Below, piece by piece: positions 4,327 to 52,819 of a stretch of 64,000 bases of DNA. The position numbers and the translations under genes are program-made. Every line of letters starts with the position of its first letter. Position 1 is the first letter of the stretch. Below the pieces are notes generated by a model. The model searched no databases, was not told the origin of the DNA, and saw nothing but the letters and a program-made list of their open reading frames with translations. Location: NCBI GenBank assembly GCA_947628235.1, contig CANQZC010000004.1, positions 12,314 through 76,313 on the forward strand, given 5' to 3'. This DNA is from an uncultured Bacilli bacterium. Lineage in GTDB: Bacteria; Bacillota_I; Bacilli_A; RF39; UBA660.

Positions 4327-4341
4327 GTGAATAAGAAAAAT

Positions 4342-9069: not shown

Positions 9070-10395
9070 ATGGATAATATATTTGATCAGATGGACTTCG
9101 GTTCATTACAACAATATCTTGACAATGACGATGTAACCGATATTTCCTACAGTAATGGAGGACAATTATGGTTAAAGACATTATCTCATGGTATATTTAG
9201 AGTAGAAAATCCTTTAATCGATAACAATTTCATGGAAAAGTTAGCATTCCAATGTTCCAATGTTGTTGGTCATAGTTTCAACGCAGCTCACCCTTTCCTA
9301 GATAGTGAAAGCGCTGAGTTGCGTATGAACTTTATCCATGATTCTATCGCTCGAAATGGGATTGCATGTGTTATTCGTAAAACACCAGCAAAGATTCGTT
9401 TGGAACATGATAAAATTATTGAAGAAAAATATATTACAGAAGATATTCATGATTTATTAATTCGTTGTGTTCACGGTCATTGTAATATGATTGTATCTGG
9501 AGAAACTGGTTCAGGTAAAACTGAGTTTGTAAAATACTTAGCTTCTCACACATACGAAAATGAAAAATTGATAACGATAGAGGATACCCTCGAACTTCAC
9601 TTGGATAGAATTTATCCACACAGAGACATCGTTGCTATGAAAACAAATAATGTTGCTAGTTATACCGATGTACTTGTTTCTTGTATGAGACAGAACCCTA
9701 AATGGATATTACTTTCCGAGGTTCGTAGTGCAGAGGCAGTACTTGCTGCCAGAAACTCTATTTCTTCTGGTCACTATATTCTTTCTACTATCCATGCCGA
9801 TAGGGCAACATCTATCCCTAACCGTATGTATAGTTTGCTAGAAACAAACCAAGAAATTGATCAATTCTTAAGATCTATCTATCGATATATTCAAATTGGT
9901 ATTTATATCCGTGGATATCAAGATAGAGTATCTAAAAGATTTGTTCGTGAGATTGCGGAAGTTTGTGAATTTTATGTTACGGAAGAAAATGAAGCAAAAT
10001 ATAATATTTTATTTCAAAAAACTCCAGCAGGAAAAATTACAAAGCATCCGCCAAGCAAATATTTAGTTGCTTATTTGGAGGCTCAAGGAGTTATCCTTCC
10101 AGAAGGTTTTATGGCAGGAGAAGCTACCGACAATGGAGTTTCTGCCTCTGAGACACTAGAAAAGGAAGATCCTTTCGCAGAACCTGCAAATAGCGAAGAA
10201 GGAGAAGGAGGACAAGAAGTACAACCTACTTCAACAGTTCCTACTGCCCCTGTAAGTCAACCAATGAATCCTATGGCAAGTCAACCTCAACCCACGATGA
10301 CTGTGCCACAACAAGTGAGTCCAATGACTCAACCACAAATGATGGCTCAAATGCCACCACAGGCAAGTCCAACGACTGCTTTTCCAACACAATAA
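9070..10395 (+). CDS. CpaF/TadA-family (VirB11-like) secretion ATPase with a C-terminal P/Q/T/M-rich tail
   Basis: Walker A GETGSGKTE, the ILLSEVRSAEA Asp-box region and the TIHA His-box are present. The last 90 or so aa are low complexity. Confidence 0.8.
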   Translation: MDNIFDQMDFGSLQQYLDNDDVTDISYSNGGQLWLKTLSHGIFRVENPLIDNNFMEKLAFQCSNVVGHSFNAAHPFLDSESAELRMNFIHDSIARNGIACVIRKTPAKIRLEHDKIIEEKYITEDIHDLLIRCVHGHCNMIVSGETGSGKTEFVKYLASHTYENEKLITIEDTLELHLDRIYPHRDIVAMKTNNVASYTDVLVSCMRQNPKWILLSEVRSAEAVLAARNSISSGHYILSTIHADRATSIPNRMYSLLETNQEIDQFLRSIYRYIQIGIYIRGYQDRVSKRFVREIAEVCEFYVTEENEAKYNILFQKTPAGKITKHPPSKYLVAYLEAQGVILPEGFMAGEATDNGVSASETLEKEDPFAEPANSEEGEGGQEVQPTSTVPTAPVSQPMNPMASQPQPTMTVPQQVSPMTQPQMMAQMPPQASPTTAFPTQ

Positions 10396-12114: not shown

Positions 12115-12144
12115 TTGAAAAATAAAAAAGTAATGTGTTATAAT
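12115..12144 (+). promoter_or_regulatory. Sigma-A type promoter: TTGAAA, 18 nt spacer, TATAAT with an upstream TGT (extended -10)
   Basis: The hexamers can be read directly in the intergenic region upstream of the small pilin gene. Confidence 0.4.
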
Positions 12145-12171
12145 AATGTTAGAATGTAAGGTGGTGAGAGA

Positions 12172-12411
12172 ATGAAAGAAGCTGCAGGTGAAGCAAACTT
12201 AACTGTAGTTGCAATTATCTTAATTGCAGTAATCGTAGCAGTAGCTACCCCATTAATCAATAGTTTGATGAGAAGTTCAGCTAGAAGATCTTGCTGTACT
12301 GATGCCGGAGGTGTTTGGAAAAGCAACAACTGCATAGCAGCATCAAATGACAGAACTGGTCAATTCGACTCTGCTGGATATTCAAGCTGCGTATCAGAAG
12401 CTGGACAATAA
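12172..12411 (+). CDS. Small Flp/class-III-signal-peptide-like pilin candidate with a Cys-rich C-terminus
   Basis: A short charged leader MKEAAG is followed by a 25 aa hydrophobic helix. The protein is 79 aa and lies between TadC-like and TadE-like genes. It is noncanonical because the G/XXXXEY motif is absent. Confidence 0.4.
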   Translation: MKEAAGEANLTVVAIILIAVIVAVATPLINSLMRSSARRSCCTDAGGVWKSNNCIAASNDRTGQFDSAGYSSCVSEAGQ

Positions 12412-12444
12412 TCCGTTCATGTAAATTTATAGGAGGTAATAGCT

Positions 12445-12978
12445 ATGAGGGAAAGCATAGGGACTTCATTTATGTTAAATTTTATAGTTTTATTTATATT
12501 TTTAGTGTTTGCCTTCTTAGCTGGAACTTTTAGCTATTACAAGGCCTATAGAGTTAACAATTATATCGTTAACTCTCTTGAAATCTATGAAGGATATAAT
12601 GAATATTCAAAGGATCAAATGGATGTAGGACTAACTAGTATGGGATATGATATTACAACAAAGATAGATTGTCCAAGTACATGGGAAAACACGAGTCAAA
12701 GTTATTTGGCGCGTGAAAATGGAGAAATTGCTAAATTTAATGTAATAGGGCAAAGAGCTTTAGTGGATTTAAACCATCCAGACGAGGGATATTGCGTTTA
12801 TTTGTATTGGAATGATGATTCCACTCTTGCCGCAGACAATTCCTATGGATTGGAAACAACAGATGTTTACTATACTTATGGTGTCTTAACATACATGAAA
12901 TTTCGTTTTCCTGTCATTGAAAACATTTTGAGAATTCCTATATTTTCTAGAACCAATAGAATGTATTATTTTGGATAA
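12445..12978 (+). CDS. TadE/TadF-like pseudopilin candidate
   Basis: The MRESIG N-terminus plus a hydrophobic helix is paralogous to the ORFs at 7726 and 13000. Confidence 0.35.
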   Translation: MRESIGTSFMLNFIVLFIFLVFAFLAGTFSYYKAYRVNNYIVNSLEIYEGYNEYSKDQMDVGLTSMGYDITTKIDCPSTWENTSQSYLARENGEIAKFNVIGQRALVDLNHPDEGYCVYLYWNDDSTLAADNSYGLETTDVYYTYGVLTYMKFRFPVIENILRIPIFSRTNRMYYFG

Positions 12979-12999
12979 GTTAGAATGGGGTGAGCCTAG

Positions 13000-13473
13000 A
13001 TGCGTGAGGCAGTTGGAAATACTTTTATTGTAAATTTATTATTAGTCTTTTTAGGCGTTATGTCTGCTTTACTAATAGGATCTATTAGTTATTCTAAGGC
13101 GTTCAAAGTAAAAAATAGAATTATTTATATTATTGAAAAATATGGTGACTGGGATGTTACGGCAGGTGGAGAAAATTTGGTTCAAGCGGAAATAGAAGCT
13201 AACTTGAGAGATATTGGGTATCATTTAGCTTTAGCCAATAGAGAGTGTCCACCTAGAGACGGTGCTTTAACAAAATATGGTACCAATAGTACTACCACTA
13301 GTAGAACTACTTATCATTATTGCGTTTATGAGTATAACAATGAGAAAGGCCACTATTTTGGTGTGACATCATATATGCACTTTGATTTGCCTTTAATTGG
13401 AAATTATATTGAATTTCCTGTATATGGGGAGACTAAGTCATTGTATGATGTAGGTCAGCACTACAATAATTAA
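13000..13473 (+). CDS. TadE/TadF-like pseudopilin candidate
   Basis: The MREAVG N-terminus plus a hydrophobic helix. Confidence 0.35.
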   Translation: MREAVGNTFIVNLLLVFLGVMSALLIGSISYSKAFKVKNRIIYIIEKYGDWDVTAGGENLVQAEIEANLRDIGYHLALANRECPPRDGALTKYGTNSTTTSRTTYHYCVYEYNNEKGHYFGVTSYMHFDLPLIGNYIEFPVYGETKSLYDVGQHYNN

Positions 13474-13492: not shown

Positions 13493-14467
13493 ATGAATGT
13501 TATCGTTTCTAATAAATATCAATTGATGCTAGAAAATCTAGGAATCGATGTTATTAAAAGTTTAAATGGGGAGTTTGAGGCTGATGAAATTATTAGCACT
13601 TTCCAAAACTTTTTTTATCAAAGAATGATTCTTGATATCACAGCGATTAAGGATTATAAGGATATTAGAAATCTTCAAAAATTATCTATAGCTTTACCTA
13701 TGGAAAAAGTAATTCTTTTACTAGATGATACAGAAGAAAGTACCTCTCCTGCTTATCTATCTAAGTTGATTTCTATGGGAATTTACAATTTTACAAGAAA
13801 TGTTGATGGAATTCAATATTTGTACAACCATCCAAATAGTTATCGTGATGTTGCACAATTCCATCAATTAGACGAAGTAGCTGTTGTTCCACAAATGCCA
13901 AATCAAGTTACACAAAATGTTGTTGTTCAAAATATTGGAACGGGTTATAGTGGAAGAATTATCGGTGTAAAAAATATTACCAAAAGTTCTGGCGCAACTA
14001 CATTAGTATATATGATGTATAATGAATTATCTAAGTACTATAATGTGGCAGCTATTGAAGTTGATAAAACCGATTTTACTTATTTAAAAACGCCAGGTCT
14101 TGTTTCTACTGTTAGTGGAAATGTAAATAGTGAAGTAGGTAAATATCGCGACTGTGATGCTATTATCATCGATGTCAATAACAGTGTTCAAGCAGAAGGA
14201 TTATGTAATGAAATCGTTTATTTGATTGAGCCTTCTGTTATCAAATTAAATCGTTTAACAATGGTAACTCCTCAAGTTTTACGAAATCTAAAGGATAAAA
14301 AGGTTGTATTAAATAAAAGTTTATTAAGTTCAAAAGATGTATTAGATTTTGAATATGAAGCAAGAATTAAAGTATTCTATAATCTTCCGCCTCTTGATGA
14401 ACGTGAAAAGAAAAATAAACCACTCGTTGAATTCTTAAATAAATTAGGTTTTGATCGAGTACAATAA
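13493..14467 (+). CDS. TadZ/CpaE-like protein with a receiver-like N-domain and a degenerate ParA/MinD P-loop
   Basis: The N-terminal 120 or so aa look receiver-like. The sequence GVKNITKSSGATTL occupies the place of the KGGVGKTT P-loop. The position matches that of tadZ. Confidence 0.35.
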   Translation: MNVIVSNKYQLMLENLGIDVIKSLNGEFEADEIISTFQNFFYQRMILDITAIKDYKDIRNLQKLSIALPMEKVILLLDDTEESTSPAYLSKLISMGIYNFTRNVDGIQYLYNHPNSYRDVAQFHQLDEVAVVPQMPNQVTQNVVVQNIGTGYSGRIIGVKNITKSSGATTLVYMMYNELSKYYNVAAIEVDKTDFTYLKTPGLVSTVSGNVNSEVGKYRDCDAIIIDVNNSVQAEGLCNEIVYLIEPSVIKLNRLTMVTPQVLRNLKDKKVVLNKSLLSSKDVLDFEYEARIKVFYNLPPLDEREKKNKPLVEFLNKLGFDRVQ

Positions 14468-14492
14468 CTTTAATATAATCAGAGGTGATATT

Positions 14493-15275
14493 ATGAGAAG
14501 TAAATTAACAAAAACTATTATTTTAATAGTTTTTGTCGTGTTTTTAGGGATAAAAAATGTAAGTGCTCTTACATGTACTTACTCAAGAAATGTTAGTGGT
14601 GAAGAACAAACATATACCATCAATTTAACTACTAAAGCGGTGACTTATACGTATTTTCGTATTCCTATGGCAGAACCTCAGACGACAAATAAGACGATGG
14701 TATTTTCTTTTACTACTTGTCCACCCTCTATTACTGTAACTGGAAACACCATTGCAGACGGCGGTAGTAGTGGAGATTATAAATTAAAAACTCCTACTTC
14801 GTCTTCCTCTTCCTCTTCAAATCTTGAGTATGGCGGAGGTGTTGGTCAGCTAACACACGAATCTAATGTAACTAATTGTGGAAGTATCACAGACATTCCA
14901 AGTGCTATTCCTAAAACAACAAAAATTATTTATATGTTTTTACAAGTTCTTATCCCTGTTATTTTAGTGATTATGGGAATGCTAGATTTAACAAAAGGTG
15001 TTATGTCTCAAAAAGAAGATGAGATAAAAAGAGGACAGCAAACTTTAGTAAAAAGATTGATTGCTGCGGCGATGGTCTTCTTTGTATTTGCACTTGTGAA
15101 AATGCTTGTTAGTTTTGTATCTGATGGTAATACTACTGTCACAGACTGCTTAAATTGCTTTATATCTGGCGAATGCGATGATACTGTTCCTCCTGTTGAA
15201 GGGGAAGAAAGTTCGTCTACTATGGTTCTTGAATGGAATGAAAGTTCAGATGCTCAGATTGCTATGGTAAGTTAG
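14493..15275 (+). CDS. Secreted hairpin-family protein P1 (VirB2/TrbC-like two-helix pilin-like domain) with a larger N-terminal region
   Basis: The ATG at 14493 follows a GAGGTGA RBS. It has a signal peptide and the conserved ...GMLDLTKGVMSQKEDEIKRGQQTLVKRLI... loop between two hydrophobic helices. A CG..I..IP motif and a C-terminal CLNCF complete the pattern. Confidence 0.6.
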   Translation: MRSKLTKTIILIVFVVFLGIKNVSALTCTYSRNVSGEEQTYTINLTTKAVTYTYFRIPMAEPQTTNKTMVFSFTTCPPSITVTGNTIADGGSSGDYKLKTPTSSSSSSSNLEYGGGVGQLTHESNVTNCGSITDIPSAIPKTTKIIYMFLQVLIPVILVIMGMLDLTKGVMSQKEDEIKRGQQTLVKRLIAAAMVFFVFALVKMLVSFVSDGNTTVTDCLNCFISGECDDTVPPVEGEESSSTMVLEWNESSDAQIAMVS

Positions 15276-15285
15276 GAGGACTAAT

Positions 15286-15813
15286 ATGAAAAAATTTTTT
15301 ACGATATTTCTTTTATTAGGAACTCTTTTGATAGTAATTGGAACCAGTCCTGTTCCTGTTTATGCAGATGAAGCTCCAGCATGGCTTAGTGGAGAGAAAG
15401 TTTCTTGTGGCAATATTCAAAATATTCCTAAAAAGGTTCCAGAATTTGTTAGTATGTTTATTTTAATAGCACAAGTAGTAGTACCTGTCTTACTAGTTTT
15501 ATTTGGTATGATAGATTTTGCGAAAGGTGTTATGTCTCAAAAAGAAGATGAAATCAAGAAGGGTCAACAAACTTTTATAAAAAGATTGTTGGTGGGTGCT
15601 ATCGTCTTCTTCGTCGTAGCGCTTGTCAAGATGCTTGTTAGTATTGTAGGAGATACGGATACTAATAAAGAAAATATTATTTCTTGTATCGATTGTTTTG
15701 TTAATGGAGTAGAAAACTGTGGAGGAACATCTTCTGGTGGAGGTGGAGGCGGTAATCCAGACCCAGGAAGAAATCCTACTGTAGATCGTTATCCAACTTA
15801 TGAACAAATTTAA
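15286..15813 (+). CDS. Secreted hairpin-family protein P2 with a Gly-rich C-terminal tail
   Basis: Signal peptide ending VYA; motif GMIDFAKGVMSQKEDEIKKGQQTFIKRLL; SCIDCFVNG. Confidence 0.6.
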   Translation: MKKFFTIFLLLGTLLIVIGTSPVPVYADEAPAWLSGEKVSCGNIQNIPKKVPEFVSMFILIAQVVVPVLLVLFGMIDFAKGVMSQKEDEIKKGQQTFIKRLLVGAIVFFVVALVKMLVSIVGDTDTNKENIISCIDCFVNGVENCGGTSSGGGGGGNPDPGRNPTVDRYPTYEQI

Positions 15814-15867
15814 CTACTTTTCAATTGATAAAAAAAATAGTATAATGACTTTGAAGGAGTGTATGTT

Positions 15868-16266
15868 ATGAAAAAGGAAAATTTAAGAATGCTAAGTTTA
15901 ATGAGCGTACTTTTTGTAGGTCTATTTGTACTGGCATCACCAGTTCATGCTCTTGAATGTGTTGGTGTAACAGTTGATGCTAATATTGTTAGAGTAGTTC
16001 ATTCTGTAATTGTATTAATTCAAATTGTAGCGCCAATCTTACTTGTTATTTTTGGTATGTTAGATTTAGCAAAAGGTGTTATGGCACAAAAAGAAGATGA
16101 AATCAAGAAGGGTCAACAAACTTTTATAAAAAGATTGATTACTGCAGCGATTATTTTCTTCGTTATAGCGCTTGTTAGAATGTTAGTAAGTTTTGTAACC
16201 GGTGATGGTTCTGATAGCGAGATTATGACATGTATTGATGCATTCATCAATGGTGAAAATTCGTAA
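15868..16266 (+). CDS. Secreted hairpin-family protein P3 (minimal pilin-like form)
   Basis: The ATG at 15868 lies 8 nt after GAAGGAG. It has a signal peptide ending VHA. Its motif GMLDLAKGVMAQKEDEIKKGQQTFIKRLI contains a 51-nt tract identical to P2. Confidence 0.6.
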   Translation: MKKENLRMLSLMSVLFVGLFVLASPVHALECVGVTVDANIVRVVHSVIVLIQIVAPILLVIFGMLDLAKGVMAQKEDEIKKGQQTFIKRLITAAIIFFVIALVRMLVSFVTGDGSDSEIMTCIDAFINGENS

Positions 16267-16283
16267 CTAGCAGGAGGTTACTA

Positions 16284-17381
16284 ATGGTAGAAAAATTAAA
16301 ACAACTGGATAAGAAGGTTTATATCATGGGAGGTATTGTGTTAGGAATAATTGTTCTCCTAATCATTCTCTTGGTAGTTATAAAAATTTTATCTGGTCCA
16401 GGCAAAAATTATAGTAAATTAGAAAAAAAATTATCTTCTGCAGCAGAAAGTTATTTAAAAGCTAATCCAGATTCTGTTCCTGCTGATGGGGAAAGTATTG
16501 AATTAGATTCAGCAACTTTAATTTCTGCTGGAAAGTTAAAAGAATTAAAAAAATATGTAGATGATGAGTGCACAGGTCGTGTTTTAGTTAGAAATAACGG
16601 TGGACTAGCCCAGTATTTACCACACTTAGATTGTACAAATTATACCACACAGCATCTTTATGATAAGGTCATTGAAGATAATCTTGTTGTTGATTCTGAA
16701 AATCCATATGAAGGTGGACTATATGAAGTTAACGGAGAATACATTTTCAAAGGGAAAAATGTTAATAACTATGTTTCTTTTGGTACTCTTACATGGAGAA
16801 TCATGAAAATCGATGAAAATGGCAACTTAAGACTTATTAAAACTAGTGCAGAAAAAGCGAAAAAGATATGGGATAATAAGTACAATTCAGATTTAGATAA
16901 AAATTATGGAATCAATGATTATGAAAATAGTTATCTTAGAGAGGTTCTAGACCAAAGTTACAAAGGAGTAACAGAAAAGAATCGTGCTCACATTATTCCA
17001 CATGATGTTTGTGTAGGAAAAAGAGCAAAAAACAATATGACTCTTTCTTATGATATTGATTGTGCAAGTATCTTAGAAAAACAATATATTAGTGTTATTA
17101 ATACTTTAGATTATCCAATGGCCAGTCTAGATGAAAATTGTAAAAAGGTAGGCGATGGTGCTTGTTCTAATTACAATTATCTAAATGGTACAATTAGTAC
17201 TAGTTGGACAAGTATTGGTGTTAGTGATAACTCTTATGAAGTATATGATATCAGTGCTGGTTATGTAAGTACTTTAAGAGCAAGACAAACCGTAAGTTAT
17301 AGTTGGGTTATCTATCTTAGCGGTCAAGAACTATATACAAAGGGTTCTGGAACTGCAGAAGATCCATATGTAATCCAATAG
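16284..17381 (+). CDS. Membrane-anchored extracytoplasmic protein (single N-terminal TM), unknown function; it is inserted within the hairpin-gene array
   Basis: Hydrophobic segment at residues 15-35, then a 330 aa hydrophilic domain containing Cys residues. Confidence 0.4.
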   Translation: MVEKLKQLDKKVYIMGGIVLGIIVLLIILLVVIKILSGPGKNYSKLEKKLSSAAESYLKANPDSVPADGESIELDSATLISAGKLKELKKYVDDECTGRVLVRNNGGLAQYLPHLDCTNYTTQHLYDKVIEDNLVVDSENPYEGGLYEVNGEYIFKGKNVNNYVSFGTLTWRIMKIDENGNLRLIKTSAEKAKKIWDNKYNSDLDKNYGINDYENSYLREVLDQSYKGVTEKNRAHIIPHDVCVGKRAKNNMTLSYDIDCASILEKQYISVINTLDYPMASLDENCKKVGDGACSNYNYLNGTISTSWTSIGVSDNSYEVYDISAGYVSTLRARQTVSYSWVIYLSGQELYTKGSGTAEDPYVIQ

Positions 17382-17387
17382 AGATTT

Positions 17388-17416
17388 ATTGACAAACAAA
17401 AATAGGTATAGTATAA
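17388..17416 (+). promoter_or_regulatory. Consensus sigma-A promoter: TTGACA, 17 nt spacer, TATAAT
   Basis: Perfect hexamers can be read directly. A GAGGAGG RBS lies 6 nt before the P4 ATG. Confidence 0.55.
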
Positions 17417-17441
17417 TTATTATAATTAGAGGAGGAAGAAA

Positions 17442-17831
17442 ATGTTACAAGTTTTAGCAAATATTGATACAAATTTAACTTACACTTGTGGAGACATTGG
17501 AATGAGTTTTAATGGGATGCTTCCATATGTTGTATCTATGATCGTTTTGATTATCAAGATCGTAGTACCAATTTTATTAATTATCTTTGGTATGTTAGAT
17601 TTGGCAAAAGCAGTTATGGCCCAAAAAGAGGATGAGATTAAGAAAGGTCAACAAACTTTCATTAAAAGACTTATTGCTGCTGTTATTGTATTCTTTGTAA
17701 TTACTATTGTTCAAATGATTATTAGTTTCGTATCAAATGATAATGATAGTATTGCAAGTTGCTTTAAATGCTTTGTTAACGGTGATGCTAGTGCATGTAC
17801 ACCAGATTCATCAACACAAGTTGGATTCTAG
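17442..17831 (+). CDS. Hairpin-family protein P4 with no cleavable N-terminal signal peptide; candidate major pilin-like subunit
   Basis: Motif GMLDLAKAVMAQKEDEIKKGQQTFIKRLI; SCFKCFVNG. It has its own consensus promoter upstream and two terminators downstream. Confidence 0.6.
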   Translation: MLQVLANIDTNLTYTCGDIGMSFNGMLPYVVSMIVLIIKIVVPILLIIFGMLDLAKAVMAQKEDEIKKGQQTFIKRLIAAVIVFFVITIVQMIISFVSNDNDSIASCFKCFVNGDASACTPDSSTQVGF

Positions 17832-17834
17832 TAT

Positions 17835-17866
17835 AAAAAAGATGCTCAACATCTTTTTTCTTTTAT
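17835..17866 (+). terminator. Rho-independent terminator (AAAAAGATG, loop CTCAA, CATCTTTTTT)
   Basis: A perfect hairpin followed by a T-run. A second A/T-rich hairpin at 17881..17908 is also followed by a T-run. A TGgTATAAT extended -10 at 17908..17916 follows. Confidence 0.55.
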
Positions 17867-17937
17867 TAAAGAATGATAGAAAAACTATTTATTAAATAGT
17901 TTTTTTTTGGTATAATAACATAGAAGGAGTAGCTTCT

Positions 17938-20073
17938 ATGGAATATATAGTAAAGATTTTAAGAACATTATTTTTCCACATAGATCGTGTTGTTTATGAA
18001 GGAATTGGAAGTGTTTATGATTTGTTGTTAAGAATAGCTAGAACAACTATTCTTAGTGACGATATGATCGGTGATTTTAGTGAGAGAATTTATGCCCTTA
18101 TTGGGATTTTTATGCTATTTAAGATTAGCATATCTCTCATTACATATGTTTTAAACCCGGACGAGTTTGTTGACAAGGAAAAAGGATTCTCTTCTATCAT
18201 AAAAAGAGTCGTTATTTCCCTCTTTTGCTTAGCTCTTGTTCCATACGGCTTTAAAGAACTATTTAGTTTGCAAACCATTTTATTAGAGGACAATACTTTG
18301 GCAGCTATATTTTTCGGCGATATTGATGATAGCGCCTATAAAATTGATACTGCGGGAGATAAAATAAAATTTATTTTGATGTATACATTCTTTCAACCAA
18401 ACTATCAGGGACTCTATGAAAATGAAGGTAATACTAAACTAGCAAGTTGCGCAATTACTTATGAATTTGAAGAAGTCTCTGGCTCTAGTCAGGGTAGAGT
18501 CAAGAAAAATGACGATGGCGCTTTTATGCTAAATCAAGAATGTTTCGGAACTTATAATGCAGATAGTCATGAATATGTACCATCAACTCCAGATACAAGT
18601 GCGCTTAATAGTGATTCTGATTATGGATCATATTGGGATGATAAAGATCTTTACCAAACTTATGCACAGGGTGTTGCTAGACAGAATTTTTACTTAATGT
18701 TTAGACACAATATAGCAATGGCTGAAAGAGGGAAAGATAAAGGTCTATATCTAGTAGATTATATGGCACCACTTAGTACAGCCGTTGGAGTAGCTGTTCT
18801 TTGGGTTTTAATTTTATTCTGTATTGATGTTGCTGTTCGTAGCGTAAAATTATCATTCTATCAGTTAATCGCGCCAATTCCAATCTTATCTTATGTAGAT
18901 CCTAAGAGTAAAGATGGAATGTTTACTAAATGGCTAAAACAAGTTGGAACAACTTTCTTAAGTCTATTTATGAGGTTAATTGCTTTATATTTAGCAATAT
19001 ACTTAATCTCTGAAGTTTCTGAATCAGGAATCAGAGATGTTATAACAGGAGAAAGAGTAACTGACTGGTGGGTACAAATCTTTGTTATCATCGGTGTGTT
19101 AATGTTTGCAAAACAATTACCAAAGATTCTTGAAGATACTTTAGGAATTAAGGGGACTGGTGATTTTACATTAAATCCATTAAAGAAGCTAGAATCTATT
19201 CCAGGTGGAAAAATGTTATCTGCTCCAGTTAAAGCAGTCGGAAATCTAGGAAAAGGTATTGCACGTGGAGCAACCTTAGGTGTTGGAGCAGCAGCTGGTG
19301 TAGGAATTGCAGGATTAGTAACTGGTCAAGGACTTCGTGGCGGCGCTATGGGAAAAGCTTTATTAGGTGCTGCTAGAGGAGAAAAATTTGGTAAAAACTT
19401 TGCAACTTCTTATGGAGCTGGACGAGCTAGAAAGAAAGAATTGGATCAGATGAAAGCAGATGGTGTTAGTGCAAGCCAAGTTAGAGGCGAGAAATTTTAT
19501 AATGCTTTCCATGGTGAAACCAAAGCAGAACATGTACAACATGCAGTAGATACAGCAAAAGCAATTCAAAGTAGATATGAATCTTATGAAAAAACAGCAG
19601 TAGGTGTCGATTCTTATGCAAAATACGCAGATAAACAAGCTAAGGCAGCTGCGGCTAGAGGTGATTTTGAATGGCAAAGAACTTGGGAGGACATTCGTGA
19701 TGACAGAATAAAAGAAATTCATACGAAAAATGGTGAAATTTCTACTTCTAAAAATGTAAGTGATTCATCATTCTTTGTAACGGATGCACATGGAACCGTT
19801 GATTATAGTCGTAGACTTGACAAAACTGGTGTAGAAGAAGGAACAACTCAGGTAAATGCAGCCTTGGCAAACTTAGCACATAGCATGACGCAACTTGCAA
19901 CTCAGTTCAACGAACAATATTCAACAGTGGCTGGATATTCTAAAATTGATGGAACTAAGGATCCAAAGGGTATGAAAAATGAGGCTCTTGGTGCTCAACA
20001 ATCTATTGAAACTAACTCTGCAAATACAACTATAAACGATGTTGCAAAATATACTGGCGGTTCTAAAAAATAA
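17938..20073 (+). CDS. VirB6/ConG/TcpH-like polytopic membrane protein with a Gly/Ala-rich hydrophilic C-terminal region
   Basis: It is 711 aa with 5 or more TM segments spread over the first 400 aa. It lies upstream of VirB3-like and VirB4 genes. Confidence 0.45.
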   Translation: MEYIVKILRTLFFHIDRVVYEGIGSVYDLLLRIARTTILSDDMIGDFSERIYALIGIFMLFKISISLITYVLNPDEFVDKEKGFSSIIKRVVISLFCLALVPYGFKELFSLQTILLEDNTLAAIFFGDIDDSAYKIDTAGDKIKFILMYTFFQPNYQGLYENEGNTKLASCAITYEFEEVSGSSQGRVKKNDDGAFMLNQECFGTYNADSHEYVPSTPDTSALNSDSDYGSYWDDKDLYQTYAQGVARQNFYLMFRHNIAMAERGKDKGLYLVDYMAPLSTAVGVAVLWVLILFCIDVAVRSVKLSFYQLIAPIPILSYVDPKSKDGMFTKWLKQVGTTFLSLFMRLIALYLAIYLISEVSESGIRDVITGERVTDWWVQIFVIIGVLMFAKQLPKILEDTLGIKGTGDFTLNPLKKLESIPGGKMLSAPVKAVGNLGKGIARGATLGVGAAAGVGIAGLVTGQGLRGGAMGKALLGAARGEKFGKNFATSYGAGRARKKELDQMKADGVSASQVRGEKFYNAFHGETKAEHVQHAVDTAKAIQSRYESYEKTAVGVDSYAKYADKQAKAAAARGDFEWQRTWEDIRDDRIKEIHTKNGEISTSKNVSDSSFFVTDAHGTVDYSRRLDKTGVEEGTTQVNAALANLAHSMTQLATQFNEQYSTVAGYSKIDGTKDPKGMKNEALGAQQSIETNSANTTINDVAKYTGGSKK

Positions 20074-20093
20074 TAAAAGGGGTGTGAAAAAAT

Positions 20094-20426
20094 ATGGGAC
20101 AATATTTAATACCGGCTAACTCGAAAAAATCCATGCTAATATTAGGTGTATTTAATCAACTTGACTTATGGATATTTCTAGTTGGATTACTCATTTCGTT
20201 AGTATTACTATTAATACTTCCAGTGGACCAATTGCCGTATGCAATTACGGCAATTGCCCCTGGTGCATTTTGTGCATTCTTGGTAATGCCAATACCAAAC
20301 TATCACAATGTGCGTACTTTTTTTAGAGTAGCATTTGTATTTTATACAACTAGACAACATTTTGTATGGAAAGGATGGTGCTTTAATAGTGGCGAAGACG
20401 GCGAGAAGCAAGTATACAGAAGCTGA
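20094..20426 (+). CDS. VirB3/PrgI-like small two-TM protein
   Basis: It is 110 aa with two hydrophobic helices and sits immediately upstream of VirB4. Confidence 0.4.
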   Translation: MGQYLIPANSKKSMLILGVFNQLDLWIFLVGLLISLVLLLILPVDQLPYAITAIAPGAFCAFLVMPIPNYHNVRTFFRVAFVFYTTRQHFVWKGWCFNSGEDGEKQVYRS

Positions 20427-20934
20427 TGTTCCTGTAAAAAGCATTACGAATGGTACTATTTTACTAGATAATGGTCAAAAGGTTACTGGTGTTAAAATTA
20501 TGCCTAGAAATATCTTTATCTTGGAACCAGCAACGCAGAATGCCATTATTACTAACTTAAAAACAGTATTCAATGTTATCGATTTTGAATTCTGGATTAT
20601 TGTTGCTGATAGACCAGTAGATATTAATGTATATCTTTCTCAATTGCAATTACTATATAACACAACCACTGATCCTGCCCGTAGAAAGATTATTAACGAA
20701 GATATCAATAAAGCAAATATGTTTGCTGCTAATAATGTAGTTGATACAGAATACTTCTTAGTTTTTAAAGAGAAAGATAATGAACTTATCAATAAGAGAA
20801 TTAGAAACTTAATTGGAAACTTTGCAAATGCTGGATTAACGGCATTCCAAACAACCAATGACGATTTAAGAATGATTTTAGACAACTTCTTAAATGGTGG
20901 TATGACAACAGAATTTGGGACGGTGTTATCATGA
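20335..20934 (+). CDS. VirB4 N-terminal-domain-like protein encoded as a separate ORF; start uncertain (the ATG at 20335 overlaps the previous gene; a GTG at 20389 follows AAGGATGG)
   Basis: Its 199 aa plus the next ORF's 595 aa add up to a typical VirB4 length, with Walker A about 440 aa from the combined start. Its stop overlaps the next start in ATGA. Confidence 0.4.
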   Translation: MYFIQLDNILYGKDGALIVAKTARSKYTEADVPVKSITNGTILLDNGQKVTGVKIMPRNIFILEPATQNAIITNLKTVFNVIDFEFWIIVADRPVDINVYLSQLQLLYNTTTDPARRKIINEDINKANMFAANNVVDTEYFLVFKEKDNELINKRIRNLIGNFANAGLTAFQTTNDDLRMILDNFLNGGMTTEFGTVLS

Positions 20935-22718
20935 TGGATGTTAGAAGCCAAATTGCTCCTAAAGGCTTGGAGTTTAAACCTGCTTCTTTTGTAATAAGTG
21001 ATAAATATGCAACCATCTTAACGGTTATTGGATATCCTAAATATATTTATCCTGGATATTTATCATCTTTAACATCTATGTCAGGTATCAAATTAGTTAT
21101 TAAAAATATCCCACTTCCTTTTAGCTCTATTCAAAAAATGTTAAACAAGGAAATTGCGGATTTAAAACAAAGATATCAAGATGAACATGATAGAACGATT
21201 CAAGAGCGTATTAGACAAGACTACGACTCTTTGGAACAATTCGTTTCTGAGTTAGCTGCTAGTCAAGCAAAAATCTATGATTTTCAAATGCATATTATGA
21301 TTACAGCCAATTCTGAAGATGAATTAACGGTAAAAAAATTACAAGTAAGAAATTATTTGGAAGCAATGGAGATGAGAGCAATCCCACTTCGCTTCGAACA
21401 AGAAAAAGTATTAAAATCTATGTTAGCAATCTATCCTAAACAGGATATTGAAGATAGAATTGGAACTCCAATTCCAGCGCCAACGATTGCTGCTATGTAT
21501 CCATTTATTTTTGATAGTATTAAGGACCCAGGACTTTCTACTTTATTAGGGGTAGACTTTTCTGGTGGAGTTATTTTGTTTAATCAATTCTTATATCAAA
21601 TTAAGAAGGAGCACAATCGAAATAACGCTAATATGATTATCCTTGGTACTTCTGGTAGTGGTAAATCTACTGCTGCTAAACTATTACTTAGATCACATCT
21701 TCGTAATAACAATCAAATTGTTGTTATTGACCCTGAAGGGGAACTTGAAGATATGTGTAAACTCTATAGTGGAGACTTTATCAGTTTAGGTAAAGGTGGA
21801 GATTTCGGTATGATTAATCCCCTTGAAGTAGTTATGGATGCTGATGAAGAAGAGATTAAGCAAGGACTAGGATACACAACTTTAACGAGAACTTTACAAT
21901 CTGTAAAAGCATTCTTGAAGTATTATGATCCAACAACAGAAGAAGATGTTACCAATATGTTTAGTGAGATTCTTCAGGAAACTTATCGAAGATTTAACAT
22001 TAACTTTGAGACAGACTTTACAAAGTTGACATCTGAAGATTATCCAACTTTAAAAGATGTTTACGCAACGATTAAAGGAAAAATCTTATCTATGCCAGAA
22101 AGAACACAAGAAAGAGATGTTTTGGAAAGACTAGAGTTAAAGATTCGTCCACTTATCAAGGAATTAAGATATTACTTTGATGGACATACAACAATTCATT
22201 CTAATAGTGATTTCATTGTATTTAACATTAAGGAGTTAATGAATTCTGATACAAATATTAGAAATGCATTATTCTTCAATGTTCTTAAGTTTGCATGGAG
22301 TTTAACTCTAGATGCTTCTCATAATACGGTATTAATGGTTGATGAGGCACATGTATTGTTAAGTAATCAAAATGCCTTAGGTGCGGATTTCTTAGCGCAA
22401 ATTCAAAGACGTGCTAGAAAATATAACACAGGAACCATTATTATTACACAACAACCAACCGATTTCTGTGATCCAGCCGTATTTGTTCAAGGAAAAGCAA
22501 TTTTTGATAACGCTTCTTATTATTTAGCAATGGGATTAAAGAAGCAAGCAGCTGAAGATTTAGCTCGTTTAATTGATTTAAATGAAAGTGAAATTGACAG
22601 TATTAAGAGATATGGTCAAGGAGAAGCATTATTCATATGCGGTTCAAGACGCATGAGAATTAATATTGTTGTAACAGATGAAGAATTAGAGTCTTTCGGT
22701 AAAGGCGGAGGACTATAA
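20931..22718 (+). CDS. VirB4-family type IV secretion ATPase (ATPase domain portion)
   Basis: Walker A ILGTSGSGKSTAAKLL; Walker B region VLMVDEAH; a C-terminal region typical of VirB4, PrgJ, TcpF and TraE. Confidence 0.8.
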   Translation: MMDVRSQIAPKGLEFKPASFVISDKYATILTVIGYPKYIYPGYLSSLTSMSGIKLVIKNIPLPFSSIQKMLNKEIADLKQRYQDEHDRTIQERIRQDYDSLEQFVSELAASQAKIYDFQMHIMITANSEDELTVKKLQVRNYLEAMEMRAIPLRFEQEKVLKSMLAIYPKQDIEDRIGTPIPAPTIAAMYPFIFDSIKDPGLSTLLGVDFSGGVILFNQFLYQIKKEHNRNNANMIILGTSGSGKSTAAKLLLRSHLRNNNQIVVIDPEGELEDMCKLYSGDFISLGKGGDFGMINPLEVVMDADEEEIKQGLGYTTLTRTLQSVKAFLKYYDPTTEEDVTNMFSEILQETYRRFNINFETDFTKLTSEDYPTLKDVYATIKGKILSMPERTQERDVLERLELKIRPLIKELRYYFDGHTTIHSNSDFIVFNIKELMNSDTNIRNALFFNVLKFAWSLTLDASHNTVLMVDEAHVLLSNQNALGADFLAQIQRRARKYNTGTIIITQQPTDFCDPAVFVQGKAIFDNASYYLAMGLKKQAAEDLARLIDLNESEIDSIKRYGQGEALFICGSRRMRINIVVTDEELESFGKGGGL

Positions 22719-22741: not shown

Positions 22742-24763
22742 ATGAATAATAAGCCAAATAACGGTGGCGGTGGAACCCCATCGTTATCACCTTCTGTGAA
22801 GGAAAGAGATTTAGAGAGTCAAGGGAAAAATTTGATGGAGGGAAAAGCTCGTGCTGTTACTCCTCCTCCTATTCCTAAAAGTAATCCAAGTAGTTCCAAT
22901 GCATCTTTACCTAAGCAGGGTGGAATTCCTAGTCAAGAAAGGGTAGGTTCTAAGGAAGGTATTGGCAGTCAAGGAGGACTGCCACCCAGAGAAAGCATTA
23001 ATAGTGGTGCTGGAACTCCAGCTGCACATAATGGACAAGGTGGGGGAGTTGCTGCAGGTGGAAAATCTAATCCACAAGCTCAGGCTTTAAAAAATAGAGT
23101 GGCTTCTGCTGCTCTTCAGGCGGCAGGAGTACCTAAGGCTGTTAGTGATATGGCTGTCAATTCAAAACTTGGTAAAAAAGCTATGACGGCGATGCAAGAC
23201 CCTGCTAAAGCGGCTCTTAATGGTGTAAAAAATGTAGGAAAAAGTGAAGCTGAAAAGGATGCTGCTGAAAAAGAAGAGGAAGAAAAAGAAAAGGAAAAAA
23301 CAACAGGCGGAGTTACTTTGAGGGTACCTCTTTCCGTAAAACTTACTATTTTCTTAGGAATTTTACCTTCTTTTTGCTTTATTATCATTTTTATGATGAT
23401 TATTGTTTCTTATGTAGCCGATGAAAAAGCATTTAATATTTTCATGGGTAAAATTGTAGGAGATAAAGATGCTAGCGATATATATGATTTCAAAGAAGAA
23501 ATGGGTATGGGTGGTACTCTAGACGATATTGGTATGGGTACTGGTGGAATTACTTTTGATGAATTCTTAAATAGATATCAAAATTTAGGAAATATTTATG
23601 AATATTTTGATTGTGAATCTAAAGAAGAATGCTTAGAGAGAGACGAAGTAAAATTTTATATCAAAGTCAATGATATTATGCTTCGTTACTATCATAAATA
23701 TAATGGTATTAATTTAGACTGGGAGTTGTTAATGTCAACCGTATTAAGTCTAGACATTGATGTGAAAGAAATGTTTAAAGAACTATGGCATTCTTATAAC
23801 TATGATGATGTTGAAAATTATGAAATCTTAATGGATTTAGATTGGGATTATGATTATAAAAAAATTCCTGGGTATGATTATTTAAGCCCTAGCGATTATC
23901 GCTATGATTTACAGATACTCGCGAAAAATATGGTTACGAAAACGACTACTCAGACTTGTACAAAATTAGTAAGAAATGAAGATGGTTCTACTTCTACCGT
24001 AGTAACGAAAACAAGAACAGATACAGATATCGAAGATATGTATCTTCAACCAGGACAACCATATTATTTAAAATGCGATGCTGGAGAAACTTATCATATT
24101 TCTAGTAATTACCGGTTAGATATGGATAAATATGATGAATTTTTATCTGAATACTTAGAGAAAAAATTATATTTGCCTGAAACGGCAGATGATAGTTATA
24201 TTCCAGATGAAAATGGTCAAATCACAATTGATCATGTAACAGGAGATAGTTTATCTGCTAAAATGGTTAATTTAGCCCTTGCTCAACAAGGAATAGAGGG
24301 TAGTTATGAACACAACGGTGATAATAATGTCATTTATAATACTTGGTATTATGGAAGAGAAGTTAGTGGATCAGCTTATCCTTGGTGTGCAGCTTTCGTA
24401 TCTTGGGTAGTAGCGCATACCGAACATGATGGTACTCAGTTATTAAGTATTTTAAATCATAAATCTGCATCTGTGCAGAATTGGGCCAGTTATTTTCAAA
24501 ATACTTCTACATTACAGCTTAAAAATTCTTCCTATTTAGGAGGTAATTACACACCAAAACAAGGAGATATGATTTTCTTCTCTTGGAAAGGTGATAATGG
24601 TTGTAGTAATACTGGAATCAGCACCATGGATCATATTGGTATTGTCGTTGAAGTACAAGGAAATAATGTTATTACTATCGAAGGAAATACTGCCAATAAG
24701 GTAGCAACCAGAACTTATGCGTTAGATAGTTGTGAAATTACAGCCTATGGGGTTTGGTACTAA
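22742..24763 (+). CDS. Membrane-anchored peptidoglycan hydrolase with a C-terminal CHAP domain (functional analog of VirB1, TcpG and CwlT)
   Basis: A 190 aa G/P/S/A-rich N-terminal region is followed by one TM. The C-terminus has the CHAP Cys (YPWCAAFVSW) and His (DHIGIVVEV) motifs. Confidence 0.65.
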   Translation: MNNKPNNGGGGTPSLSPSVKERDLESQGKNLMEGKARAVTPPPIPKSNPSSSNASLPKQGGIPSQERVGSKEGIGSQGGLPPRESINSGAGTPAAHNGQGGGVAAGGKSNPQAQALKNRVASAALQAAGVPKAVSDMAVNSKLGKKAMTAMQDPAKAALNGVKNVGKSEAEKDAAEKEEEEKEKEKTTGGVTLRVPLSVKLTIFLGILPSFCFIIIFMMIIVSYVADEKAFNIFMGKIVGDKDASDIYDFKEEMGMGGTLDDIGMGTGGITFDEFLNRYQNLGNIYEYFDCESKEECLERDEVKFYIKVNDIMLRYYHKYNGINLDWELLMSTVLSLDIDVKEMFKELWHSYNYDDVENYEILMDLDWDYDYKKIPGYDYLSPSDYRYDLQILAKNMVTKTTTQTCTKLVRNEDGSTSTVVTKTRTDTDIEDMYLQPGQPYYLKCDAGETYHISSNYRLDMDKYDEFLSEYLEKKLYLPETADDSYIPDENGQITIDHVTGDSLSAKMVNLALAQQGIEGSYEHNGDNNVIYNTWYYGREVSGSAYPWCAAFVSWVVAHTEHDGTQLLSILNHKSASVQNWASYFQNTSTLQLKNSSYLGGNYTPKQGDMIFFSWKGDNGCSNTGISTMDHIGIVVEVQGNNVITIEGNTANKVATRTYALDSCEITAYGVWY

Positions 24764-27575: not shown

Positions 27576-29783
27576 TTGAAATTAAAATTTCGTGCTGAGA
27601 CAAAGGATGTAGTTATCTTTTGCATCTTTTCTGCAGTTCTTTTCTTTCTTATTTGCTTAGCTGTATCGAATGTAGGAATTTTTATTGCGGAAAATGAATT
27701 TGTTGGTTTCAATATCATTCCTGCTTTAACAAGATATTTACCATTTACCTTGATGCTTTTTATTATTTCTATTATAGCTATGTTCTTAAGTGTTCAGTCT
27801 TGGTTTATTGAAAGAGAAGAAGGTATTGGTATTCAAATTGGTGCCAAAAAGGAAAAAAATTATTCTAGATGGGCCAAAGATAAAGAAATTCAAAATGGAC
27901 TAGATGTAGTAGCCGTTGATCCTCTAGCGCCTAAGACTGATGCTGCTGGTATACCATTAATTATGACACCTAAAAAAGTTTGGGTAGATAATGGTGGATA
28001 TCACAACCTAGTTATCGGTTCTACTGGTGCTGGTAAAACACAGACTACTGTACTTCCTATGGTAAATTTACTTGCAAAACATGATGAGTCTATGATTATT
28101 ACAGACCCTAAAGGTGAAATTTATGAATTAACTTCTAACTATTTAAAAAGTTTAGGATACAATATCGTTCTTTTGAACTTCCGTGATCCTCAGCAAGGAA
28201 ATAGTTGGAATCCAATGTATTTACCATATTCTTTATATAAACAGCATAAAATTGATAAATCTATCGAGTTATTGGAAGACTTAGCAGCCAATATCTTAAA
28301 GGACCCTTCTGCGAAGGGACAAGACCCATTCTGGGAAAATACATCAGCAGATTACTTTTCAGGATTGTCTTTTGCGCTTTTTGAAGATGGTGATGAGTCT
28401 CAAATTAACTTAAATAGTATTAACTTAATGACGACAGTAGGAGAAGAGAAACTAGCTAATACTACCTATATTAAAGAGTATTTTAGTTTTAAAGATCCTG
28501 CTAGTACAGCTTATATTAAAGCATCATCAACATTGATGGCACCAAATGAAACAAAAGGATCTATCCTTTCTGTATTTAAACAGAGAGTTCAATTATTCGC
28601 ATCTCGTACCAATTTATCTGAGATGCTTGCCAATAATGACTTTGATATGCGAGATATTGGTCGAAAAAAGACGGCTGTATTTATCGTTATTCAAGATGAA
28701 AAAACAACTTATCATACATTAGTTACGATTTTCTTGAAGCAATGCTATGAAACACTTATTTCTGTAGCGCAAGAAAGTGGAGGAAAACTTCCTCATAGAA
28801 CTAATTTTATTCTAGATGAGTTTGCTAACATGCCACCATTAAAAGATGTTACTACGATGGTTACAGCGGCTCGTTCTAGAAATATTCGTTTTACGTTTAT
28901 TATCCAGAACTTCTCTCAATTATATGAAGTATATGGAAAAGAAAATGGTGAAACAATTAAAGGTAACTGTGGTAACATCGTTTACTTAATTAGTACAGAG
29001 TTAAGTGCTTTGGAAGAGATTAGTAAAATGTGTGGAGAAGTAAAATCAAAAGAAAAAGAAAAGACTTCCTCTACGCCACTGGTTACTGTCAGTGATTTAC
29101 AAAGAATGGAACAATGGCAAACAATTATCCTTCGTATTCGAACGATGCCATTTAAGACTAAATTAACTCCTAACTTTAAGATGGATTGGGGACATAATTT
29201 CCCTAAAGCAGATTATCCACAAAGAGAGGAAATTCCTGTTCAAATCTTTGATTTAAAGGGATTTGTAGAGAAGAAAAGAGAAGAGAAAATTAATAATTTA
29301 TTAGGAAATTCCGGAACTCCTGGAGGAGGAGTTCCAACTCCAATTCCAACTCCTGGAATGCCAACTTCTCAGTTCCCACCTACGCCATTTGGAGCAGGAA
29401 CACCAAGCAACCCTTTCTCTTCTAGACCATTCCCACCAAAGGCTGGCATGACGAATGCTGCGGAAAAGAAACCTGCTGGTGGAGGAATTAATGTAGAAGA
29501 CTTAGTTAAGAGAATAGATGCGAAAATTGCTGAATTAGAAGAAGAAGAAAAGAGAGAAAAAGAGGCACAAGGTGGTGGAATTCCAAATCCAGAGATACCA
29601 AATCCAGAGATACCAAATCCAGAGATACCAAATCCGGAAATTTCAACACCTATGGAAACACAGCCACAAATGCCTGTTTCTTCTCCTGTCACGCCAACTA
29701 GAGAGCCAGAAAAACCTAAAGAGACAACTGCTCCAAAAGTTAGCGATGATGAATTCTTTGATGATTTCTTTGGAGATGATTAA
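27576..29783 (+). CDS. VirD4/TraG/TcpA-like type IV coupling protein with a Pro-rich repetitive C-terminal tail
   Basis: Two N-terminal TMs; Walker A LVIGSTGAGKTQT; Walker B region ILDEFANMP. The start is a TTG, 5 nt after TAGGTGA. Confidence 0.75.
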   Translation: MKLKFRAETKDVVIFCIFSAVLFFLICLAVSNVGIFIAENEFVGFNIIPALTRYLPFTLMLFIISIIAMFLSVQSWFIEREEGIGIQIGAKKEKNYSRWAKDKEIQNGLDVVAVDPLAPKTDAAGIPLIMTPKKVWVDNGGYHNLVIGSTGAGKTQTTVLPMVNLLAKHDESMIITDPKGEIYELTSNYLKSLGYNIVLLNFRDPQQGNSWNPMYLPYSLYKQHKIDKSIELLEDLAANILKDPSAKGQDPFWENTSADYFSGLSFALFEDGDESQINLNSINLMTTVGEEKLANTTYIKEYFSFKDPASTAYIKASSTLMAPNETKGSILSVFKQRVQLFASRTNLSEMLANNDFDMRDIGRKKTAVFIVIQDEKTTYHTLVTIFLKQCYETLISVAQESGGKLPHRTNFILDEFANMPPLKDVTTMVTAARSRNIRFTFIIQNFSQLYEVYGKENGETIKGNCGNIVYLISTELSALEEISKMCGEVKSKEKEKTSSTPLVTVSDLQRMEQWQTIILRIRTMPFKTKLTPNFKMDWGHNFPKADYPQREEIPVQIFDLKGFVEKKREEKINNLLGNSGTPGGGVPTPIPTPGMPTSQFPPTPFGAGTPSNPFSSRPFPPKAGMTNAAEKKPAGGGINVEDLVKRIDAKIAELEEEEKREKEAQGGGIPNPEIPNPEIPNPEIPNPEISTPMETQPQMPVSSPVTPTREPEKPKETTAPKVSDDEFFDDFFGDD
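29583..29642 (+). repeat. Four tandem 15-bp repeats, CCAAATCCAGAGATA, encoding (IPNPE)x4
   Basis: Three copies are identical and one has diverged. They lie in frame inside the VirD4-like tail. Confidence 0.8.
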
Positions 29784-29867
29784 AAGACCTTTCTTATGGA
29801 AGGTTTTTTTCATGAATGAAAGATTTGTGTGATATAATAAAAGTAGTATTAATAAGAGAGGGATGCT

Positions 29868-34823: not shown

Positions 34824-34848
34824 ATAGACATCTCTATCTATTTTTTTT
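34820..34848 (+). terminator. Rho-independent terminator: TAGATAGA, loop CATC, TCTATCTA, T8
   Basis: A perfect 8-bp stem that includes the P6 stop codon, followed by a T-run. Confidence 0.6.
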
Positions 34849-34878
34849 AAATATGATATAATTATGTTAGGTGATGTT

Positions 34879-52771: not shown

Positions 52772-52819
52772 GGAGTATAATGAAGTAGGAATGAGGAATT
52801 CTAGAAAGAGGGGGATAGT

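Follow-up and report, generated by a model that had tools for sequence, protein, structure and literature searches.

This analysis concerns P4, a small gene in a 64,000-nucleotide stretch of DNA from an uncultured Bacilli bacterium (GTDB lineage Bacteria; Bacillota_I; Bacilli_A; RF39; UBA660; NCBI GenBank assembly GCA_947628235.1, contig CANQZC010000004.1, positions 12,314 to 76,313 of the forward strand). The whole stretch is called the window here, and coordinates count from its first letter. P4 (17442..17831) encodes a leaderless two-helix membrane protein of 129 amino acids (aa), a candidate VirB2/PrgF-like pilin of a type IV secretion system (T4SS). Three leader-bearing paralogues (P1, P2 and P3) and a Tad-like module lie upstream of it, and a VirB6-like gene followed by further T4SS genes lies downstream. 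The gene is framed by a consensus promoter and a ribosome-binding site on one side, and by two terminator-like hairpins and a second, putative restart promoter on the other; all of these elements, the paralogues and the two genes that flank P4 are on the + strand. The transcription unit of P4 is well supported, and its role as the major T4SS pilin is plausible.

The P4 transcription unit

The original prediction had placed P4 behind a perfect TTGACA-17-TATAAT promoter and a GAGGAGG ribosome-binding site, with two consecutive terminators after the gene and a TGgTATAAT promoter restarting transcription into the VirB6-like gene, and each of these elements was found. The SigA/sigma-70-type promoter spans 17389..17417, with the −35 element TTGACA at 17389-17394, a spacer of 17 nt and the −10 element TATAAT at 17412-17417 (12/12 consensus positions). 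Transcription would begin near 17424. The Shine-Dalgarno sequence GAGGAGG (17429..17435) lies 6 nt 5´ of the P4 start codon at 17442, and the region of translation initiation is unstructured (median minimum free energy, −0.35 kcal/mol). In a promoter scan, this site was the sole 12/12 match within 12-24 kb, and the 64-kb window holds three such perfect promoters where 0.18 would be expected from its base composition. The other two are located at 51232-51260, upstream of an open reading frame (ORF) at 51420-51959, and at 52754-52781, upstream of a gene for a Clp-family AAA+ ATPase with AAA_2/ClpB_D2-small domains (52820-54937).

The first terminator-like hairpin (17835..17866) consists of a stem-loop at 17835-17859, with a 10-bp stem, a 5-nt loop and a folding energy of −7.6 kcal/mol, followed by the tail CUUUUAU. 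The second (17878..17908) has its stem-loop at 17878-17906, with a 13-bp A/T-rich stem around CTATTTA/TAAATAG (−8.1 kcal/mol) and a U-run that extends to 17908. Both fold better than shuffled sequences (z = −3.5). A scan for consensus G+C-rich terminators reported neither of them; each contains fewer than three G-C pairs. The last U of the second hairpin and the next G form the TG of the extended −10 element TGgTATAAT (17908..17916), which has a weak −35 (TTTATT) and is located 21 nt before the VirB6-like start codon. It is followed by GAAGGAG and then by the ATG of the 711-aa VirB6-like ORF at 17938. A scan of 11-24 kb against Rfam gave no match, so that no riboswitch or known small RNA is present in the P4 unit.

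Since the genome has only 33% G+C, motifs in a single sequence are weak evidence, and the cassette was therefore compared over related loci. A total of 76 loci, each retrieved by a match to the P4 family, were taken from species-representative genomes, all of them metagenome-assembled genomes of uncultured gut Bacilli, 'Tenericutes' or Erysipelotrichaceae, with P4 identities of 50-92%. A promoter matching at 11/12 or more positions precedes P4 in 72 of them, compared with 2.7% of random 180-nt windows of the same loci. The −35 element reads TTGACA in 60 loci and TTGACT in 14; otherwise the hexamers are invariant, with variable spacer and flanking sequence. The spacer measures 17 nt in 70/76 loci, the distance from the end of the −10 element to the P4 ATG is 23-26 nt in 56/76, and GGAGG occurs within the P4 leader in 62/76 orthologous loci. 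In its consensus hexamers, spacing (17 ± 1 nt), placement and conservation, the predicted site has the marks that define a SigA/sigma-70 promoter.

The downstream elements behave in a similar way. A hairpin with a U-tract at −6 kcal/mol or below follows the P4 stop codon in 79% of loci, compared with 10% of other genes, and mostly begins 1-8 nt past the stop. The stem sequences are unrelated even between orthologues at 81-92% identity; structure is kept, and sequence is not. TGnTATAAT occurs within 200 nt of the P4 stop in 62/75 loci (83%) and after 11% of other genes, with a background rate of 0.18 per kb per strand. The fusion of the terminator U-tract to the restart promoter is frequent among the loci (...TTTTTTTTTG(G/A)TATAAT).

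The order of promoter, ribosome-binding site, gene, terminator and restart promoter is conserved over the 76 species-level loci, while nearby intergenic sequence turns over. This conservation and enrichment relative to controls indicates that the promoter, the terminator and the restart promoter are under joint selection. The comparative data provide strong support for a function of the cassette, and the design of the transcription unit is very probably functional. The contrary explanation is that P4 is a decaying paralogue that has lost its signal peptide, with flanking motifs that are A/T-rich chance matches. Promoter-like hexamers and A/T hairpins are indeed common in a genome of this composition, and in a consensus scan promoter-like sites were as numerous in the window as in shuffled sequence. 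However, at the fixed positions around P4 the promoter, terminator and restart promoter are found 7-30 fold above controls, in loci that are not near-identical copies of each other. The conservation of the protein, described below, bears on the same question.

Two further observations concern the region after P4. The palindrome of the second hairpin, AAAAACTATTTA(n)TAAATAGTTTTT, is nearly invariant across loci whose P4 proteins are only ~60-70% identical (shared by loci L001, L006, L009, L013, L014, L022, L028, L032, L038 and L039), unlike the sequences of the first hairpin, which turn over between loci. It overlaps the −35/spacer region of the restart promoter and could perhaps have a second role as the operator through which the virB6 operon is regulated. 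Furthermore, an 8-bp inverted repeat, CATAGAAG...CTTCTATG (17919-17940, −10.4 kcal/mol), sequesters the ribosome-binding site and start codon of the VirB6-like gene. A general role of this hairpin in damping translation of VirB6 was rejected, as no locus other than the window and its closest relative, L001, has it.

The original prediction of an insulated monocistronic unit holds at the downstream end, where the terminator-like hairpins lie, and fails at the upstream end. No hairpin or U-tract is present in the 7-nt gap between the stop codon of the upstream 365-aa gene (17381) and the P4 −35 element (17389). The insulation of P4 is one-sided because no terminator precedes its promoter; the unit appears closed at its 3´ end only, and read-through from the upstream operon would be unblocked. 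The only clean intergenic terminators in 12-30 kb are the two past P4 and one past virD4 (29783-29808). The likely layout comprises three parts. An upstream operon, transcribed from a TG-extended promoter with an 11/12 match at 12115-12144, would run into P4; the internal consensus promoter would add to P4 transcription, and both transcripts would end at the P4 terminators; and a separate promoter would drive virB6 to virD4.

Such a cassette is well conserved, yet conventional for a bulk structural subunit. In other systems, major-pilin genes (Flp of Tad loci, type IV pilA) are likewise transcribed from a strong promoter of their own and followed by a terminator or attenuator, which makes the subunit more abundant than the machinery. 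Neither the protein families nor the assembly machines of these systems are related to those of P4.

The P4 protein and its family

A longer N-terminus of P4 is excluded by an in-frame TAG at 17427. The protein contains an acidic N-terminal tail (residues 1-28, with Cys16), a first transmembrane (TM) helix at ~29-53, a basic loop at 54-76, a second TM helix at ~77-100 and an acidic C-terminal tail with Cys107, Cys110 and Cys119. The loop is invariant and contains AQKEDEIKKGQQTFIKR. Exactly two hydrophobic segments were detected, with 19-residue Kyte-Doolittle windows peaking at ~30-48 and 77-95, and the AlphaFold2 model (pLDDT 74) is a helical hairpin with helices at 26-60 and 63-100. In P4 the loop has 6 K/R and the tails have 0-1. 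Among 49 members of the family, the loop carries an average of 6 K/R and the acidic tails 0.5-1.1, and all of the cysteines lie in the tails, one N-terminal and about three C-terminal. An N-out/C-out topology is predicted from the short acidic tails and the basic loop according to the positive-inside rule. The first helix would then be a reverse signal anchor with its N-terminus outside, in agreement with the signal-anchor role that had been suggested for it.

P4 orthologues measure ~106-139 aa, and essentially all of them are leaderless. The sole leader-bearing best match, in locus L055, is a paralogue, and a P4-type copy is present downstream of it in the same locus. The exact P4 protein was located on just two short contigs, which added no gene context.

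The three leader-bearing paralogues occupy 14451..16266 (P1, 14451-15275; P2, 15286-15813; P3, 15859-16266) and are candidate minor or variant subunits. With P4 they have in common the two-helix core, the KEDEIKKGQQT loop and the C-terminal Cys motif; in addition, each carries an N-terminal extension, and the length of this extension varies. By eye and by a simple heuristic, P1-P3 have Sec-type leaders with n, h and c regions and P4 has none, as had been noted at the outset; the leaderless state proved to be conserved. Between 0 and 4 such paralogues lie upstream of P4 in any one locus; 129 were found in total, and a leader-like N-terminus is present in 119.

A full hidden Markov model search for the family, which is defined by the P4 two-helix core, retrieved 7977 representative clusters at 50% identity, 3189 of them at E ≤ 1e-10. 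In many members the core is extended on its N- or C-terminal side by 100-450 residues, and Pfam annotation is near-absent in the family. The size of the family argues against P4 being a gene in decay. So does its conservation: P4 is the best-conserved and most widely retained paralogue found, present in 76/76 loci (which were retrieved by their match to the family), and its orthologues keep the leaderless N-terminus, including Cys16. Together with the positional enrichment of the flanking motifs, these data make decay and chance matches barely credible as an explanation.

Gene neighbourhood

The gene downstream of P4 (17938..20073) encodes a 711-aa VirB6/TrbL-like polytopic membrane protein, the presumed assembly platform. 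Its matches to TrbL_4, MMCAP2_0566, pLS20_p028 and Mbov_0396 are below threshold yet consistent. The distance from the end of P4 to this ORF is 106 nt, and the VirB6-like ORF lies downstream of P4 in 69/76 loci. It is followed by a small VirB3-like ORF, VirB4 (20335-22718), a CHAP hydrolase (22742-24763) and VirD4 (27576-29783). VirB4 is encoded by two ORFs that abut in different frames and overlap at ATGA, the first for the N-terminal domain (20335-20934) and the second for the ATPase part (20931-22718). This split was observed in 63/64 related loci and represents a conserved two-gene VirB4 rather than an assembly error.

Directly 5´ of the P4 promoter, 16284..17381 encodes a conserved protein of ~365 aa that has a membrane anchor at its N-terminus and matched nothing in Pfam, NCBIfam or PDB. 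An ORF of ~320-430 aa occupies this position in ~62/75 loci, with tblastn similarity in 49/76. The protein may act in assembly, or as a tip protein or adhesin.

Further upstream, the Tad-like module includes a T2SSE ATPase (9070-10395), an RcpC-like gene, a Flp-like pilin (12172-12411) and two pseudopilin-like ORFs. The Flp-like protein is the candidate major pilin of this module; it has 79 aa and an N-terminus of MKEAAG followed by EANLTVVAIILIAV..., and its gene lies behind the 11/12 promoter with the TG-extended −10 element at 12115-12144. The two pseudopilin-like ORFs after it (12115-13473 region) share MRE(S/A)xG(T/N)(S/T)F N-termini.

The proximity of this module raises the question of whether the P family serves the adjacent Tad-like (type IVc) pilus or another envelope function instead of the T4SS. 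The module (TadC-like protein, Flp-like pilin, two pseudopilin-like ORFs and a 324-aa protein) directly adjoins the P array and is co-conserved with it in 45-71 of the 76 loci, and synteny cannot separate the two modules in this lineage. However, none of the P proteins has a class-III (prepilin peptidase) leader, the leaders of P1-P3 being of Sec type, and the Tad-like module already has a pilin of its own behind its own promoter. Moreover, P4 adjoins the VirB6-like gene in the great majority of loci. An assignment of the P family to the Tad-like pilus or to another envelope function is thus quite improbable.

The combined Tad-like and T4SS cluster (1939-31007) is chromosomal, with scpA on its left and rmuC, RNase R, smpB, gap, ruvB and queA on its right. 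Its G+C content is uniform with the flanks (~0.33), and no tRNA genes lie in the cluster region. No relaxase or integrase was found in Pfam, NCBIfam and PDB searches of the large ORFs that had no assigned family; those at 1939-3540, 4327-7719, 29868-31007 and 33528-36189 gave no match at all, and a relaxase could be hidden among such ORFs. Because of the uniform G+C content, the lack of tRNA genes and the failure to detect an integrase or relaxase, the cluster has the appearance of an apparatus long resident in the chromosome, like that of Patescibacteria.

P4 as a candidate VirB2-like subunit

The sequence evidence for a pilin is centred on PF18895 (T4SS_pilin), a model of 71 positions with a gathering threshold of 26.6 bits. 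P4 matched model positions 12-71 with 14.3 bits (E = 0.043). In the family, PF18895 was the most frequent and the top Pfam match, found in 32/49 members at E ≤ 0.1 with a best E of 1.4e-6. The closest approach to the threshold was that of the orthologue in locus L036, which reached 25.7 bits across positions 1-70 and carries the PF18895 label in a precomputed table. The homology of P4 to this family is best described as borderline. The classical VirB2 family, PF04956, was absent from every Pfam scan of P4 and its relatives.

The VirB2-like proteins of monoderm bacteria have been recognized only recently. According to a 2025 review, VirB2 is absent from Gram-positive T4SSs, with the exception of Patescibacteria (PMC12857230). 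A preprint of December 2025 reports VirB2-like proteins in ~95% of representative Gram-positive conjugative plasmids and finds hardly any sequence homology between these proteins; they are recognized by a length of 50-150 aa, two TM helices, a charged cytoplasmic loop and a position near virB6 (bioRxiv 10.64898/2025.12.18.695078). One of them is PrgF of Enterococcus faecalis pCF10, a leaderless protein of 75 aa with two TM helices and a charged loop, encoded just 5´ of virB6; it is essential for conjugation and models as a pilus on a VirB6 pentamer (ter Beek et al., bioRxiv 10.64898/2025.12.18.695078).

P4, with 129 aa, two TM helices, a predicted N-out/C-out topology and virB6 adjacency, has the features of this class, but not sequence similarity to PrgF. 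Like PrgF, it is a small leaderless protein whose two TM helices are joined by a charged cytoplasmic loop, and its gene lies just 5´ of a VirB6-like gene. The gene order P4-B6-B3-B4-CHAP hydrolase...VirD4 parallels prgF-prgG-prgH(B6)-prgI(B3)-prgJ(B4)-prgK of pCF10. The two proteins differ in size, P4 having Cys-bearing tails of ~25 residues and an invariant loop of 23 residues where the PrgF loop is 'short'. In addition, prgF lies inside the prgQ operon with gaps of 46 and 13 nt, which leave little room for a cassette such as that of P4. Finally, P4 is accompanied by 0-4 leader-bearing paralogues and belongs to a chromosomal locus in which no relaxase was found.

A second parallel is found in Patescibacteria (candidate phyla radiation), where arrays of 2-11 PF18895/VirB2-like pilin genes occur near virB4, mostly relaxase-less and chromosomal (PMC12102498). 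These arrays belong to MPF_FATA-type T4SSs and resemble the P locus in their tandem, divergent two-TM genes near virB4/virB6, their monoderm hosts, their chromosomal location with no detectable relaxase and the co-occurrence of a type IV-like pilus system. The P locus differs in its host, an uncultured gut Bacilli bacterium, and in its borderline PF18895 membership. It also has one leaderless paralogue with a dedicated promoter and terminator, whereas promoters are not mentioned for the arrays in PMC12102498.

The classical TrbC/VirB2 pilins (PF04956; T-pilus, F, R388, RP4) likewise form a two-helix hairpin in the membrane, with the termini outside and the loop inside, and assemble on VirB6 (PMC12857230; bioRxiv 10.64898/2025.12.18.695078). 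Their propilins have long cleaved leaders and virB2 is normally an internal operon gene, in contrast to P4, which is leaderless and shows no profile similarity to them.

Taking these data together, the reading that we favour, by a modest degree, is that, within a family of small two-helix membrane proteins, P4 is the leaderless core member and a VirB2/PrgF-type pilin (conduit subunit) of a chromosomal T4SS of Gram-positive type. It is plausible that it belongs to the recently recognized class of monoderm VirB2-like T4SS subunits. Whether it polymerizes as a pilin is a narrower claim, for which the chances appear evenly balanced. The proposal that P4 is the major pilin was partly supported: architecture, gene context and the borderline PF18895 match speak for it, and the comparisons with known VirB2 and PrgF profiles do not.

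Several points weigh against this reading. In hhalign comparisons, the P4-family alignment reached a probability of 0.1% with an Agrobacterium VirB2 alignment of 26 PF04956-annotated proteins, and of 0.2% with pCF10 PrgF. A profile search of PDB sequences returned no pilin, only gap-junction noise. The PF18895 scores are mostly below the gathering threshold and of the same order as spurious matches to nematode DUF621 or 7TM families; among wider relatives, PF18895 was found at E ≤ 0.01 in 15/80, a level similar to that of spurious TM families, and part of the signal may reflect transmembrane composition. The hairpins after P4 are weak in absolute energy and may perhaps only attenuate transcription. 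There are, moreover, two filament candidates at the locus, so that a filament on these cells need not be made of P4. Finally, we infer promoter and terminator activity, the abundance of P4, filament formation and the division into major and minor subunits from sequence and conservation. Among other searches, fold searches found nothing specific, NCBIfam gave only compositional matches such as MamI and MscL, and blastn of 14400-20100 against a plasmid collection gave no match.

These points leave room for P4 as an abundant membrane component of the T4SS that forms no filament, such as a VirB6 partner or a channel-lining or stabilizing subunit. The strong promoter would then reflect high stoichiometry or fast turnover of a membrane complex. 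Context and topology fit such a component as well as they fit a pilin, no solved pilin resembles P4 specifically in sequence or fold, and about half of the surveyed Gram-positive plasmids encode several small two-TM candidates of which only one models as a pilus. Nevertheless, a two-helix hairpin with a conserved charged loop, encoded directly 5´ of virB6, is the defining VirB2-like architecture; T4SS_pilin is the sole coherent Pfam signal; and a promoter and terminator that boost a single small gene suit a polymerizing subunit. A non-filamentous component is unlikely on balance, though it is a serious contender.

Under the VirB2/PrgF-type reading, the observed sequence elements and gene context, the conservation of these elements and the topology features predicted for P4 can be joined in the following model. 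Transcription would begin ~7 nt past the SigA promoter, at a strong and probably constitutive level, and give a leader of ~17 nt, unstructured and carrying GAGGAGG. The transcript, of ~440-485 nt, would end at one or two A/T-rich hairpin/U-tract terminators, which would yield a short, hairpin-stabilized P4 mRNA and also end read-through from the upstream Tad-like/paralogue operon. The extended −10 promoter at the U-tract would restart transcription for virB6-virB3-virB4...virD4, which would end at the 29783-29808 terminator. The level of P4 would in this way be uncoupled from that of the machine proteins, with P4 in large molar excess; because of this uncoupling, the layout fits a subunit that is needed in excess.

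The protein itself would insert N-out/C-out with no cleavage of a signal peptide, probably via YidC/Sec, which would place its four conserved cysteines outside the cell. By analogy with known systems, P4 would form a membrane pool, and subunits extracted from it would be polymerized on the VirB6-like platform into a structure whose lumen is lined by the conserved charged loop. P1-P3 may represent minor or variant subunits with extra N-terminal domains.

A more far-reaching proposal would make the cluster a relaxase-less, long-resident chromosomal organelle of gut Bacilli with reduced genomes, joining a Tad-like pilus and a T4SS, and not a conjugation element. It would carry a VirB2-like filament of constitutively over-expressed P4, decorated by the leader-bearing paralogues with their variable N-terminal domains. 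In the Firmicutes, this organelle would correspond to the T4SS/pilin-array apparatus that is essential in epibiotic Patescibacteria, and it would act in cell-cell interaction or uptake, not in plasmid transfer. Taken as a whole, this proposal is speculative and rather unlikely to hold in all its parts.

Gram-positive T4SSs were held to lack VirB2 until 2025, and one preprint now argues that it is near-universal on their plasmids (PMC12857230; bioRxiv 10.64898/2025.12.18.695078). In Patescibacteria, the pilin arrays are essential. Against this background, P4 adds a large unannotated family, with 7977 clusters, that is chromosomal, is found in uncultured gut Bacilli and occurs in arrays of paralogues. 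Within such an array, the promoter-terminator-promoter cassette marks one paralogue as the likely bulk subunit. A small two-TM gene that is located 5´ of virB6 and has a consensus promoter and a terminator to itself may provide a simple genomic signature for major subunits where homology fails.

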